Assembly: GCA_043815885.1 (NCBI GenBank)
Contig: JBDRIL010000045.1
Location: 1 to 11,597 of the forward strand
Direction of reading: 5' to 3'
Length of the DNA: 11,597 nt
DNA from: an archaeon
GTDB taxonomy: Archaea > Iainarchaeota > Iainarchaeia > Iainarchaeales > 1-14-0-10-31-34
This document shows, piece after piece, positions 155 through 11,597 of this stretch. Numbering within the stretch: the first letter of the stretch is position 1; the number at the start of each line of letters is the position of its first letter. The translations under genes and the position numbers were made by a program. Below the pieces are notes generated by a model. It saw nothing but the letters and a program-made list of their open reading frames with translations, did no database searches and was not told where the DNA came from.

Positions 155-381
155 GTTTCGACGAAGTCGAAATCCTATTACCGACTGAAAGGAGGTAGTA
201 GTACACGCATGTAAACTGGGCGTGACAGTTTCCGAGCATAAGCGAGGAAAGCGTACCTCTGAACGAAAGTGAAGAGGTACCCTAAAGCGTAAACCGATTT
301 GCGGTTTTGCCGAAGGCAAGTCCTACTACTGACCGAAGGGAAGTAGTAGTACGTAGTGTAAACTGATAATATTCAGTTTTT
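155..381 (+). repeat. Three tandem ~75-nt modular hairpin units (C-A-B) abutting tRNA-Trp
   Basis: Units at 156-231, 229-307 and 307-381. Each has hairpin C (TTTCGAC-GAA-GTCGAAA; TTTCC-GA-GC-ATAA-GC-GA-GGAAA; TTGCC-GAA-GGCAA), hairpin A (8-bp stem-GA-2bp-GAA(A)-2bp-GA-stem), a spacer, and hairpin B (GT-AAACYG-loop-CRGTTT). Confidence 0.9.
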
Positions 382-524
382 GGGGTCATAGGGTAATGGC
401 TATCCCGCTAGGCTCCAGTCAAAAAGGAATTGGAGCGATGACAAAAACAAGGAATTGTTTTTGGATGACATAAATTTTTTGAGGGAGGCACTTAGCAATC
501 CGGGTTCGACTCCCGGTGACCCCA
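382..524 (+). tRNA. tRNA-Trp(CCA) with 71-nt intron at canonical 37/38 position (419-489)
   Basis: Acceptor GGGGTCA/TGACCCC+A; anticodon stem CTAGG/CTTAG with CCA at 415-417; T arm CCGGG-TTCGACT-CCCGG; bulge-helix-bulge-like junction (CTCC/GGAG helix, bulges AGT and GCA). Confidence 0.95.
419..489 (+). ncRNA. Intron-encoded box C/D-type guide (reduced) for Cm34 of tRNA-Trp
   Basis: TGGAGC (431-436) is complementary to GCTCCA of the anticodon arm. It is followed by D'-like ATGA (438-441), with the 5th nt upstream pairing C34, then a 9-bp hairpin and C'-like TGGATGA (462-468). This matches the known Haloferax pre-tRNA-Trp intron guide logic. Confidence 0.7.
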
Positions 525-5543: not shown

Positions 5544-5600
5544 GATTAAAACCTTTTAGTGCGAACTACTATTAAATAATTTACTTTTTCAGCTTTTTTA

Positions 5601-5658
5601 TTTTTTGAAACTGGTTTCTTTGGGGTCCTAGCACTTTCTTTTTGAAAAAAAGGGCTAG
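5601..5658 (-). repeat. tRNA 3' trailer repeat (copy after tRNA-Pro-GGG)
   Basis: 54/58 ungapped identity to 11464-11521; hairpin CTAGC..CTTT...AAAG..GCTAG followed by GACCCCAAAGAAA. Confidence 0.9.
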
Positions 5659-5733
5659 TGGGGCCGCCGAGATTTGAACTCGAGTCGGTAGCTCCCCGAG
5701 CTACAATGCTAGACCAGACTACACCACGGCCCC
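5659..5733 (-). tRNA. tRNA-Pro(GGG) with C33
   Basis: Acceptor GGGGCCG/CGGCCCC+A; anticodon arm GTAGC-TCGGGGA-GCTAC; T arm TCGAG-TTCAAAT-CTCGG. Confidence 0.92.
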
Positions 5734-5872
5734 AAAACCGCAAATCGGTTTACGCTTTTCACTACTACCTCCTTTTAGTCGGTAGTAGGACTTGCCTTCG
5801 GCAAAACCCCACTGTCAGTTGACACAAACCGTCACGCCCGGTTTATGTGCGTGTACTACCTTTGGTAGTACG
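5734..5872 (-). repeat. Modular hairpin array (A-B-x-C-A-B) abutting tRNA-Pro(GGG)
   Basis: Exact matches to the Trp array: AAAGCGTAAACCGATTTGCGGTTTT (284-308) and GGTTTTGCCGAAGGCAAGTCCTACTAC (303-329). Confidence 0.9.
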
Positions 5873-5884
5873 TCCTCAGAATTC

Positions 5885-6027
5885 TTTCCCTTTTTTCTTT
5901 CTTTGGGCAATTACAATCGTTTTCTTTTCTGAAAATAGTTTCTTTGAGGTCCTAGACCTTTGCTTGTTTTTCTTTCTTTGGGCAACTTACACTTTCTTTC
6001 TTTTTCTAAAAGAAAGAAAGGGCAGAG
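5885..6027 (-). repeat. Extended trailer after tRNA-Pro(TGG) with internal repeats
   Basis: CCCTTTCTTT...AAAGAAAGTG hairpin, CTAGGACCTCAAAGAAA motif (about 5931-5955), and two copies of TGTAA(G)TTGCCCAAAGAAAGAAAAA (5892-5915, 5967-5991). Confidence 0.75.
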
Positions 6028-6102
6028 TGGGACTGCCCGGATTCGAACCGGGGTTATTGGCTCCCAAAGCCAAAGTGATAGACCAGACTACACTACAGCC
6101 CC
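6028..6102 (-). tRNA. tRNA-Pro(TGG)
   Basis: Acceptor GGGGCTG/CAGTCCC+A; anticodon arm TTGGC-TTTGGGA-GCCAA; T arm CCCGG-TTCGAAT-CCGGG. Confidence 0.96.
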
Positions 6103-6279
6103 AATCAGAACCTACGGTTCCGATACCTCCCTTACGGAAGGATGCCTTTTCCTTTTTGATCAACCTTTTTTCCAAAAAGGCTGTCCGATACCTTTTCCTT
6201 AATCAGAATCTATGGTTCTGATACCTTTTCCTTTTTGATCAACCTTTTTTCCAAAAAGGTTGTCCGATACCTTTTCCTT
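6103..6279 (-). repeat. Tandem ~79-nt direct repeat made of hairpins, abutting tRNA-Pro(TGG)
   Basis: Copies 6103-6200 (with a 19-nt extra hairpin) and 6201-6279 are otherwise near-identical. Confidence 0.9.
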
Positions 6280-6283
6280 CTTG

Positions 6284-6337
6284 CTATTACCTCGCTTTAC
6301 TCGGTAATAGGAGTTCCTCGCTTTTCGCTAGGAAAAC
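6284..6337 (-). repeat. C-A hairpin module pair of the tRNA-leader family
   Basis: GTTTTCCTAGCGAAAAGCGAGGAACTCCTATTACCGAGTAAAGCGAGGTAATAG closely matches 11271-11324. Confidence 0.85.
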
Positions 6338-10088: not shown

Positions 10089-10254
10089 TATATAATTAAA
10101 TAGCTTTAAAAAGGTTTTATAGCAGAAATAAAAATATAATTAAACCCTAATTTTATTCTTTGATTAAAAGAATTACTTTAGGGCTAATATCAAAGGGCAA
10201 AAATATAGAAACAAAATTTGTCCTTTGATATAAACCTTGCGGAGGACAAACCTT

Positions 10255-10941
10255 ATGGATAAAGTTGCAGAATTAAGGCCCTTTCAGAAAAGGGTTGAAT
10301 TGCTCGTGAAAGTAGTGGAAAAAACAGAAGAAAGAGAAGTTACCTCAAGACTGGACAATACCACTCACAGGGTATCAGAAGCAGTAGTGGGAGACGAAAC
10401 AGGAACAATACTTCTCACTCTGTGGGATGACCTCATAGACAAAATAGAGCAAGATAAAGTGTATAAGGTAACAAACGGTTACACCTCTCTCTTCAAGAAC
10501 ACCCTTAGACTGAATATCGGAAGATACGGTACAATAGAGGACTCAAGCGAAGAAATAGGAGAAGTAAACTCTGACAATAATGTATCAGAAAAAGAAATTC
10601 AGACAGGAGGAAGGTTCGGAGGAGAAAGAGGCGGTGGCTTCAGAAGAGGATTCGAGAAAAGAGAAAAACCAAAAAGAGAGGAAACAGAAGAAGAAGACAC
10701 AAGCGACGAAGACAAAGAAGATGACGAAGAAAGCGATGACGACTCAGAAGACGAACCAGAAGCTGATACAGAAGAAGACACTGCTTCTGAAAAAAGCAGT
10801 GGCGCAAAAGATAAAAAGAACAAGAAAAAAGAAGCTGCTGAAGAAACAAGCGACGAAGACAAAGAAGAAGACGAAGAAAGCGATGACGACTCAGAAGACG
10901 AACCAGAAGCTGATACAGAAGAAGACGAAGAACTGAAATAA
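10255..10941 (+). CDS. ssb: Single-OB-fold ssDNA-binding protein with RGG and acidic tail (probable start ATG 10255)
   Basis: MDKVAELRP...VSEAVVGDETGTILLTLWD...NGYTSLFKNTLRLNIGRYG resembles the Sulfolobus-type SSB OB fold; GGAGG SD at 10241-10245. Confidence 0.9.
   Translation: MDKVAELRPFQKRVELLVKVVEKTEEREVTSRLDNTTHRVSEAVVGDETGTILLTLWDDLIDKIEQDKVYKVTNGYTSLFKNTLRLNIGRYGTIEDSSEEIGEVNSDNNVSEKEIQTGGRFGGERGGGFRRGFEKREKPKREETEEEDTSDEDKEDDEESDDDSEDEPEADTEEDTASEKSSGAKDKKNKKKEAAEETSDEDKEEDEESDDDSEDEPEADTEEDEELK
10699..10926 (+). repeat. 81-nt in-frame direct repeat in the ssb tail
   Basis: 10699-10779 vs 10846-10926, 80/81 identical. Confidence 0.95.
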
Positions 10942-11270: not shown

Positions 11271-11389
11271 GTTTTCCTAGCGAAAGCAAGGAAATCCTAC
11301 TACCGAACGAAAGTGAGGTATTAGTGCGAAGCACGTACTACTGACCGAAGGGAAGTAGTACACTGACGTAAACCGGCAGTGGCGGTTTC
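11271..11389 (+). repeat. Modular hairpin array (C-A-C-A-B) abutting tRNA-Ile
   Basis: Contains an exact 25-nt match TACTACTGACCGAAGGGAAGTAGTA (11336-11360 = 324-348) and ends with AAACCG-GCAGTGG-CGGTTT one nt before the tRNA. Confidence 0.9.
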
Positions 11390-11463
11390 GGGCCTGTAGC
11401 TCAGCCTGGTTAGAGCATTGGTCTTATACACCAAGTGTCGGGGGTTCAAATCCTCCCGGCCCA
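11390..11463 (+). tRNA. tRNA-Ile(TAT)
   Basis: D arm GCTC/GAGC; anticodon arm TTGGT-CTTATAC-ACCAA (TAT 11425-11427); T arm GGGGG-TTCAAAT-CCTCC; acceptor GGGCCTG/CGGCCC+A with one unpaired base. Confidence 0.88.
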
Positions 11464-11521
11464 CTAGCCCTTTCTTTAAAAAAGAAAGTGCTAGGACCCC
11501 AAAGAAAGAAGTTTCAAAAAA
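11464..11521 (+). repeat. tRNA 3' trailer repeat (copy after tRNA-Ile)
   Basis: 54/58 identity to the reverse complement of 5601-5658. Confidence 0.9.
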
Positions 11522-11535
11522 GAAAGGGAATTTAA

Positions 11536-11597
11536 ATGAAAAAAAAGAAGTTATTGGAAGCGTATTCTCTTGAGAAAGAGAATGAAGTAAAAAAATT
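11536..11597 (+). CDS. 5' end of a CDS running off the window; possibly a class Ia aaRS (IleRS-like)
   Basis: MKKKKLLEAYSLEKENEVKK resembles the Y...E.E.EV.KFW N-terminal helix of Ile/Val/Leu-RS. Only 20 codons are visible. Confidence 0.35.
   Translation, partial: MKKKKLLEAYSLEKENEVKK

Follow-up and report, generated by a model that had tools for sequence, protein, structure and literature searches.

Hairpin arrays at the edges of tRNA and other stable-RNA genes in an Iainarchaeales archaeon as probable accumulations of small mobile DNA elements

Hairpin arrays before the four tRNA genes of the window

The stretch of DNA analysed here, referred to below as the window, is the whole of an 11,597-nt contig (C45) from the 62-contig, 1.16-Mb assembly (G000; 37% G+C) of an archaeon of the order Iainarchaeales. 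By the Rfam tRNA model it carries four tRNA genes: tRNA-Trp(CCA) at 382..524 on the plus strand, with an intron of ~71 nt (46 bits; also called by ARAGORN with introns), tRNA-Pro(GGG) at 5659..5733 and tRNA-Pro(UGG) at 6028..6102 on the minus strand, and tRNA-Ile(UAU) at 11390..11463 on the plus strand, the last three being found by ARAGORN as well (without its intron mode, ARAGORN called three of the four). Each gene is preceded by a run of sense-strand hairpins that, by sequence reading and folding, ends 0–2 nt before position +1, as an earlier sequence-only reading of the window had described. These arrays are probably accumulations of small, non-autonomous, hairpin-forming mobile DNA elements, which look like insertions lodged at the borders of genes for tRNA, rRNA and RNase P RNA, and within tRNA introns, in a group of very small archaea.

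The array before tRNA-Trp (155..381, plus strand, ending 1 nt before the tRNA) is defined by its sequence, its fold and homologous copies in the genome. It is built from three units, each comprising a module C (a short hairpin), a module A (a stem of 8–9 bp, then a tandem GA facing GA, 2 further bp and a loop of the GNRA or GAA type) and a module B. These occupy 156–172 (C), 174–202 (A) and 204–231 (a long form, B-long) in the first unit; 230–250, 253–280 and 288–307 (a short form, B-short) in the second; and 307–319, 322–350 and 358–380 (B-short) in the third. The threefold C-A-B order with a period of ~75 nt that had been read from the sequence thus holds, at a start-to-start spacing of 73–77 nt. 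Tandem Repeats Finder returned no entry over the window arrays, because the units are less than ~70% alike; what recurs is the structure rather than a closely similar sequence. Module B had been taken for a single hairpin, and in this it proved more complex: B-long at 204–231 consists of two interleaved helices, S1 (204–208 with 220–224) and S2 (213–218 with 226–231). The sense strand of 155–381 folds at −82.1 kcal/mol, compared with −53.7 ± 4.2 kcal/mol for 200 dinucleotide shuffles (z −6.83, with 0 of 200 as good), and its complement folds at −66.0 kcal/mol (z −4.57).

The three remaining arrays vary this plan. That before tRNA-Pro(GGG) (5734..5872, minus strand; identified by sequence, fold and B pattern matches at 5826–5844 and 5735–5751) runs from a simple A-like hairpin through B-long (about 5852–5826), a degenerate B, C and A to a B-short adjoining the tRNA. 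The array before tRNA-Ile(UAU) (11271..11389, plus strand; sequence, fold and a B pattern match) opens with C and A, continues through a mini-hairpin whose loop is GAA and another A, and closes with a B-long (core 11371–11387) that adjoins the tRNA. The array before tRNA-Pro(UGG) (6103..6337, minus strand; sequence, fold, repeat family D9, and D and E copies in relatives) begins with C and A and continues with type-2 modules, namely E and D hairpins joined by A-rich linkers, of which a D hairpin adjoins the tRNA; it contains an internal duplication at 79-nt spacing that is 97% identical (repeat family D9). The full set of C, A and B modules is therefore found before tRNA-Trp, tRNA-Pro(GGG) and tRNA-Ile, and gives way to C-A followed by D and E before tRNA-Pro(UGG).

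Modules and their folds

An alignment of 100 distinct copies of module B, from which 12 distant-genome matches in coding-like sequence without a hairpin were excluded, is nearly gapless and contains two interleaved helices: S1 pairs columns 7–11 with 24–28, and S2 pairs columns 17–22 with 30–35. Standard pairs fill 92.5% of the cells of S1 and S2, compared with 79.6% after shuffling (0 of 500 shuffles as high) and 27–41% when the partner strand is slid, and 132 cells are changed on both sides of a pair, compared with 41 in shuffles. Four of the S2 pairs are uninformative, being preset by the search pattern; the 5' strand of S1 and column 17 were free. At the outer S2 pair (17–35), CG occurs in 44 copies, AU in 31, GC in 15 and UA in 6, so that all four Watson–Crick types are represented and account for 96 of the 100 copies. 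Within S1, pair 10–25 switches among GC, UA and AU, pair 11–24 switches among CG, GC and UA, and pair 8–27 is unpaired in 50 of the 100 copies. The selection on structure that the sequence-only reading had proposed from pair-preserving changes is thus upheld for both helices. With a 5-bp S1 the third loop of B is 1 nt long, too short for a pseudoknot; with a 3-bp S1 core it is 3 nt long, which is feasible. From the sequence, the helices may form a small pseudoknot with a 3-bp S1 core or, equally possibly, two alternative hairpins.

A compact and conserved module that ends where the tRNA leader is cleaved could be imagined as a small pseudoknotted ribozyme that releases the tRNA 5' end, a reading that we consider extremely improbable. 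B also occurs in antisense at 3' ends, inside arrays and beside protein genes, positions that do not suit such a role, and G000 encodes an RNase P RNA (117 bits against a cut-off of 84), which settles in the affirmative one of the points that the sequence-only reading had marked for checking. Another was a possible match to a described RNA family: Rfam 15, searched over the window at E values up to 1, returned the four tRNAs and one chance small-RNA match (E 0.79) and no ribozyme, and at 17 further array loci its matches were confined to rRNA, tRNA and RNase P RNA, together with weak ones attributable to chance, so that no described family matches the arrays in either set.

Sequence upstream of B is far less constrained than B itself. 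Mean pairwise identity is 31% over the 30 nt before B, compared with 72% for B; nevertheless, a hairpin is present in nearly all of these 30-nt segments, and 52 of 99 fold at z < −2. An element, on this evidence, consists of one to three hairpins of nearly free sequence (C, A) followed by a conserved terminal module, which is B or a D or E hairpin, for a total of ~45–75 nt. The outer helix of B opens with N-AAC and closes with GTT-N', and D and E hairpins have stems of the AACC...GGTT type. Many of the upstream hairpins (C, A) carry a tandem G.A internal loop.

The G.A loops bear on a further alternative, according to which the arrays would be precursors of small protein-binding RNAs, with G.A hairpins bound by L7Ae-type proteins and excised introns acting as functional circular RNAs. 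The recurrence of tandem G.A (2x2, or GA opposite GAA) in hairpins whose stems vary freely would suit this proposal, as would the location of the modules in precursor parts that are released as separate RNAs. On inspection by eye against the consensus, however, the hairpins lack the 3-nt bulge that defines a kink-turn, since helices flank the GA/GA (2x2) or GA/GAA (2x3) loop on both sides; many copies have plain loops, antisense copies would lose the motif, and no Rfam match was obtained. We regard it as improbable. Among public sequencing runs, none of RNA is listed as containing this DNA.

In a DNA palindrome, templated correction of one arm by the other can also produce compensatory changes. 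Because this gives the same pattern, covariation in B is no proof of RNA function, and the changes in S1 and S2 taken alone do not tell selection on RNA from selection on a DNA hairpin or from templated correction. Taken together, the conserved helices and the retained G.A pairs do indicate selection on a folded single strand, and this selection could act on the element's own propagation.

Positions of the modules in the source genome and its relatives

ARAGORN with introns predicts 43 tRNAs in G000 and the Rfam model 34. Around 22 of the 43 ARAGORN predictions are intron-bearing, many with introns of 55–112 nt, and part of these intron-bearing calls lack confirmation by the Rfam model; several of the introns contain B-, D- or E-type modules, situated, as ARAGORN places them, at or near the canonical site. 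Inspection of the flanks of all 43 tRNAs revealed 5' arrays on 12; in the remaining 31 the leader is short and plain and follows an AT-rich box that resembles a promoter. (Promoter-like AT boxes sit upstream of the arrays, and we rejected B as a promoter by eye.) When the 12 arrays were used as blastn-short queries, their matches in the window were confined to the four places described above, and across G000 they amounted to 32 regions, of which 22 are at least 40 nt long: the 12 queries and 10 others.

Copies away from tRNA 5' ends take several forms. An antisense array lies 5 nt past the 3' end of RNase P RNA, and a sense C-A-B array lies directly 5' of the 23S processing stem, a 12-bp helix formed between the sequences on either side of 23S rRNA. 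Antisense arrays are found 1 nt past each of two tRNAs on contig C29, and another 107 nt past tRNA-Leu(CAG), behind a second copy of the last 14 nt of that tRNA. Two arrays belong to a tRNA-Tyr(GTA)-like gene on C49, one before it and one inside it, and three orphan arrays lie on C8, C52 and C14; in addition, an antisense D module follows the 3' end of 16S rRNA. The statement that arrays always stand in tRNA sense and occur nowhere else accordingly holds within the window by blastn-short and fails in the genome, where antisense, rRNA, RNase P RNA, intron and orphan copies exist. Counted from the array 3' end, 14 of the 22 arrays lie within −3 to 12 nt of a stable-RNA boundary, compared with a random rate of 0.00075; part of this enrichment is circular, since the BLAST queries themselves make up 12 of the 22 (the Trp array scored −6 because its match ran on into the tRNA). 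No G000 tRNA was seen with both a 5' sense array and a 3' antisense array, and the 5' flank of 16S rRNA lacks a sense D module; a leader–trailer processing stem was rejected on these grounds.

Three loci call for separate description. At G000:C49:14925-15200 (minus strand), two pieces that together read as tRNA-Tyr(GTA) lie apart, with ~235 nt between them at the anticodon loop in which a complete C-A-A-B array is found, and the first piece has an A-B array in front; both ARAGORN and Rfam missed the pieces, which represent either a giant intron or a split gene. The 3' flanks of tRNA-Leu(CAG) (C33:13841-13960) and tRNA-Leu(CAA) (C26:32250-32368) each contain hairpins followed by a mini-copy of the tRNA's own first 7–8 and last 14 nt, which looks like the remnant of a target duplication or a degraded tRNA copy.

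The related genomes, for which the sequence-only reading had proposed a scan, also carry the modules. The Trp array has BLAST matches in all eight other genomes of the family and in 3 of 32 other genomes sampled from the order. A degenerate B core occurs in all nine family genomes (54 copies, 2–13 each) and, in most cases as a single copy, in 25 of the order's 187 other genomes; the total is 101 matches, compared with 16 for a reversed control pattern. The distribution is uneven: one of these 25, the genome G108, holds 13 B copies and its two congeners (67% and 73% complete) none, and there are genome-specific B subfamilies, exemplified by one variant present six times in G007. D and E modules were found in 18 of 41 related genomes sampled, and many E copies lie at contig ends. 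Farther afield, an exact B 17-mer searched against 185,579 species genomes matched 79 times, and about 47 of these matches fall in archaeal metagenome-assembled genomes (MAGs); many of the latter are titled Altiarchaeota or Altiarchaeales, and others Iainarchaeum, Micrarchaeota or archaeon. We treated the ~32 bacterial matches as chance, because by our estimate ~70 matches are expected from the size of the collection and none has conserved sequence 5' of the core, and also five matches on viral contigs, which represent one same unrelated stretch without an upstream hairpin.

Among 87 distinct B occurrences in the loci examined, 21 lie in sense directly before a tRNA (gap to its 5' end −1 to 3), 9 adjoin a tRNA 3' end in antisense, 7 lie in tRNA introns in antisense (with the B end at the 5' exon in 5, and further modules between in 2), and 5 lie directly 5' of the 23S processing stem. 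The other 45 comprise 10 intergenic copies in G108, copies inside arrays, a few orphans and probable chance matches. A hand tally restricted to the family places about 35 of 46 examined B copies (about three quarters) within a few nucleotides of a stable-RNA gene or exon boundary, and at none of the examined family B loci does the hairpin end of the element face a gene. In other families, D adjoins a tRNA 5' end in sense, tRNA 3' ends and the 5' exon at one intron in antisense, and, in a second genus, the 16S 3' end. Which tRNAs bear arrays varies from genome to genome, and in G108 and in MAGs titled Altiarchaeota many copies lie at the ends of protein genes. The modules thus extend beyond the tRNA 5' ends named in the sequence-only reading to 3' ends, introns, rRNA, RNase P RNA and protein genes.

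This closeness to gene edges is what a host-functional reading of the arrays would build on. Under such a reading, which we think unlikely, the arrays would be spacer modules that fold locally and stack on the terminal helix of tRNA and rRNA precursors, either insulate their folding from the flanking sequence or mark and assist their processing sites, and spread by duplication and gene conversion instead of transposition; it may overlap with the mobile-element reading if mobile copies were domesticated. Spacers of this kind would account for a terminal module 0–3 nt from a stable-RNA edge in 37 of the 87 B copies, with 5 more beside the 23S stem, for the number of G000 arrays that face a boundary, for the compensatory changes in both B helices, and for a sense strand that is 16 kcal/mol more stable than the antisense strand at 155–381. 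They would not explain why 31 of 43 tRNAs do without arrays, why the distribution is patchy with bursts, or why copies with target duplications sit at the ends of protein genes; moreover, at antisense sites the transcript would be the complement, in which the G.A and G.U features are lost.

In the window, the 3' flanks of the tRNA genes also bear hairpins. A trailer hairpin directly follows tRNA-Ile (11465..11525, plus strand), and a copy of it follows tRNA-Pro(GGG) (5597..5657, minus strand), the two belonging to an inverted repeat (I1) with arms at 5597–5662 and 11460–11525 and having 66 nt in common at 92% identity. A related trailer hairpin follows tRNA-Pro(UGG) (5960..6026, minus strand; repeat family D15, inverted repeats I8 and I25), so that three of the four window tRNAs have a conserved trailer hairpin that begins right past the discriminator base, and T/A-rich hairpins resembling these trailers are also present in tRNA introns of related genomes. 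Both flanks of these window tRNA genes seem to be occupied by repeat elements.

Some further features of the window were noted in passing. In archaea, the intron of tRNA-Trp is a known source of a box C/D guide RNA. The intron of the window's tRNA-Trp (419–489) has a box C/D guide RNA-like layout with two GATGA-type boxes and a TGA box, and returned no Rfam match for such an RNA. Window positions 11380–11597 have a counterpart at C19:1640-1860: the two contigs are identical from a point within tRNA-Ile(UAU) up to where C45 ends, and differ in upstream sequence and acceptor stem; this pair may reflect strain variation or assembly overlap at a repeat, and because the latter is possible we left it out as evidence of polymorphism. 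The open reading frame at 10237–10941 contains a Glu/Asp-rich coding repeat (10663–10926) with 87-nt units that are 98% identical and 147 nt apart.

Signs of mobility and comparison with known systems

Evidence that the elements move comes in part from their flanks. Local alignment of upstream against downstream flanks for 136 copies (median best score 16), with element boundaries read from the flank listing and the flank alignments, revealed clear direct duplications in 13, of which 11 begin 0–2 nt after B. Their lengths include 17, 17, 19, 22, 23, 25, 25, 30, 32, 33, 35 and 40 nt, within a reported range of 17–43 nt. The duplicated sequences are varied: one of 32 nt extends from a tRNA T-loop to the 3' end plus 10 nt, others of 23–33 nt cover tRNA 5' parts and others of 17–19 nt tRNA 3' ends, several of 30–35 nt lie over gene starts, and one of 40 nt covers the 3' end of a ferredoxin-like gene and is followed by a second element, which is a growing array. 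An insert bearing D is likewise flanked, by 26-nt duplications. Duplications of tRNA sequence have their inner end in the T-loop, in the D-loop or just past the D-arm, positions that would fit cutting of a folded single strand.

A comparison of orthologous tRNA-Asn genes in four congeners provides a second line of evidence. All four share the promoter box and the tRNA. In one the leader is short and plain; the other three have leaders with hairpins that differ from one to the next (E-type, or a hairpin together with B) and that stop 1 nt short of +1 in every case. Two of the four genes contain an intron, which in one of them takes the form of an E-type hairpin whose short tail can pair with the anticodon region. 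A dedicated tRNA leader would be expected on the same tRNAs in relatives and only 5' in sense; instead, this site is empty in one congener and filled with different elements in three, which also counts against host-functional spacers. Together with the 31 tRNAs without arrays, the differing identity of the bearers between genomes, the presence of RNase P RNA and the lack of an Rfam ribozyme, this leaves the structured leader offered by the sequence-only reading without support. The non-autonomous element that it had offered as its other possibility fares better, in view of the patchy bursts, the target duplications and the empty and filled tRNA-Asn sites, with the qualification that tRNA 5' ends are too narrow a description of the target.

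Hairpins with AAC...GTT stems might also be recombination sites, folded in single-stranded form and acted on by a site-specific recombinase, in the manner of attC or Xer sites. The terminal stem N-AAC...GTT-N', with its covarying outer pair, may be likened to the outer boxes of attC sites, and integrons have been described in archaeal MAGs of nine phyla (PMC9668308). Here, however, the hairpins are contiguous or adjoin tRNAs, with no open reading frames or gene cassettes between them; the elements are 45–75 nt long and lie at tRNA edges, and flank duplications of 17–43 nt are not produced by site-specific recombination at a fixed core. tRNA is unmentioned in the main text of the integron paper (PMC9668308). 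We judged an integron attC identity unlikely, and consider recombination sites of any such kind very unlikely.

If the arrays are accumulations of mobile elements, their location could be understood from the processing of the host transcripts. The element's transcript would be cut off by RNase P in leaders, by the 3' processing nuclease in trailers, and by the splicing endonuclease in introns and rRNA spacers, and because the added transcript would thus be removed by processing, insertions at these edges should be close to neutral. Repeated insertions at one edge would then build arrays such as the threefold C-A-B array before tRNA-Trp. The conserved helices would be kept because the element needs them for copying, probably as a folded single-stranded nucleic acid, and the fixed polarity, with the terminal module toward the gene, might reflect insertion guided by structure at the gene boundary, a step that is speculative. 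We put forward more tentatively the possibility of a wider superfamily of hairpin elements in DPANN-type archaea and Altiarchaeota, with structure-guided, directional insertion at the physical limits of stable-RNA genes in a folded or RNA-hybridised state (both ends of the tRNA, 5' and 3', and position 37/38), that would keep generating and reshaping leaders, trailers, rRNA spacers and, most of all, tRNA introns.

Several observations weigh against the mobile-element interpretation, or at least against a purely selfish form of it. Junctions of 0–3 nt and a constant polarity within the family are tighter than neutral survival alone predicts, and the partial circularity of the boundary enrichment has been mentioned. 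Six genomes, which represent five genera or more, have B at the same site 5' of the 23S processing stem; S1 differs among them and is paired in four of the six. An antisense D follows 16S rRNA in both G000 and G002, which belong to two genera; both patterns are also points in favour of host-functional spacers. D is 97–100% identical across several families, and the non-Watson–Crick tandem G.A is retained on the sense strand. Host function or domestication would also fit the 23S-flank B, the 16S-flank D, the near-identity of D and the tandem G.A, and domestication that is at least partial is argued for by some points, namely the exactness of the junctions, the unvarying polarity in the family, the B kept at the 23S flank and the near-identity of D. 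No target duplication is visible around the four window arrays. The element itself is atypical for a transposon, having no terminal inverted repeats (a variable hairpin at its 5' end and B, D or E at its 3' end, which in single-copy insertions are not each other's reverse complement) and duplications of variable length.

Nor does any enzyme sought so far track the elements. In five genomes (G000, G001, G003, G007 and G108, all MAGs, whose incompleteness means that absence is not proof), the Y1 transposase domain (PF01797) was found in G003 only and not in the copy-bearing G000, G001, G007 and G108; the TnpB domain (PF07282) occurs in two, with three instances in G000 and one in G003; reverse transcriptase (RVT_1, PF00078), which a SINE-like retroelement would need, occurs in none; and a GIY-YIG nuclease occurs in two. 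All four were rejected as the mobiliser, since none tracks the elements across the five genomes; copy-rich genomes (G007, G001, G108) lack most of them. The G000 TnpB-like genes (Cas12f1-like TNB domain) lie at C38:17467-17664, C11:11385-11582 and C2:375-572, two of them in open frames of 420 aa. The 12 arrays had no blastn-short match on the three contigs that carry these genes.

Mobility, if confirmed, would explain together the leaders of 100–230 nt, the many ARAGORN-called tRNA introns of 55–112 nt, the tRNA fragments near tRNAs and the assembly breaks at tRNA loci. Leaders, trailers and introns would share one source, and the origin of archaeal tRNA introns would become testable by comparison of close relatives; the DNA insertion mechanism, with duplications of 17–43 nt and fixed polarity, would lie outside the enzyme families tested. 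For annotation, such arrays should not be read as regulatory leaders, and tRNA finders will miss or misplace the genes that bear them.

Full-text literature searches turned up no description of these modules, and the closest comparisons are with other small repeats. In bacteria, repetitive extragenic palindromic (REP) sequences, bacterial interspersed mosaic elements (BIMEs) and REP doublets forming hairpins (REPINs) are extragenic palindromes mobilised by REP-associated tyrosine transposases (RAYTs) of the Y1 type. Like them, the present elements are short, non-autonomous hairpin repeats of intergenic sequence, single or arrayed, in genome-specific families; unlike them, they lack a RAYT/Y1 enzyme in four of the five genomes searched, have interleaved terminal helices and long, variable duplications, and occupy stable-RNA gene ends and tRNA introns in archaeal hosts. 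Rickettsia palindromic elements are selfish palindromic repeats that survive in a reduced genome at places, also inside genes, where their cost is slight; here the safe sites would differ, being the parts of RNA precursors that are cut away, and the elements are directional, toward the gene edge.

The ends of IS200/IS605 elements, palindrome-associated transposable elements and the ωRNAs of TnpB share with these elements the folded single-strand hairpins at the ends and a structured RNA that ends at the element boundary, and circular ωRNAs of TnpB have reportedly been found in archaea. IS200/IS605 is not known to make target duplications, and in the five genomes here TnpB is present in two and TnpA in one, with no array match on the TnpB-like contigs of G000. 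MITEs, or miniature inverted-repeat transposable elements, are also small, non-autonomous and multi-copy and are flanked by target duplications, which in MITEs are short and of fixed length and here are variable (17–43 nt), and the present elements have no terminal inverted repeats. Candidatus Altiarchaeum hamiconexum is reported to have the highest density of conserved MITEs among archaea (PMC11602168), and this richest lineage falls in Altiarchaeota, the label of many B-bearing MAGs. In sum, because they combine an absence of terminal inverted repeats with variable duplications of 17–43 nt, the elements do not fit the standard rules of MITE, REP or IS200/IS605 systems.

Work on the transposition of tRNA introns in Thermoproteales is said to offer a comparable case. 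Archaeal tRNA genes disrupted by an element of 1.8 kb, predicted to encode a recombinase, have also been described, and the likeness extends to related sequence in different tRNAs, gain and loss of introns among close relatives, and tRNA fragments beside the inserts (PMC3293823). The difference is one of scale and site: a 1.8-kb element with a predicted recombinase there, and here hairpin modules of 45–75 nt that lie in leaders, trailers, rRNA spacers and introns alike (PMC3293823).

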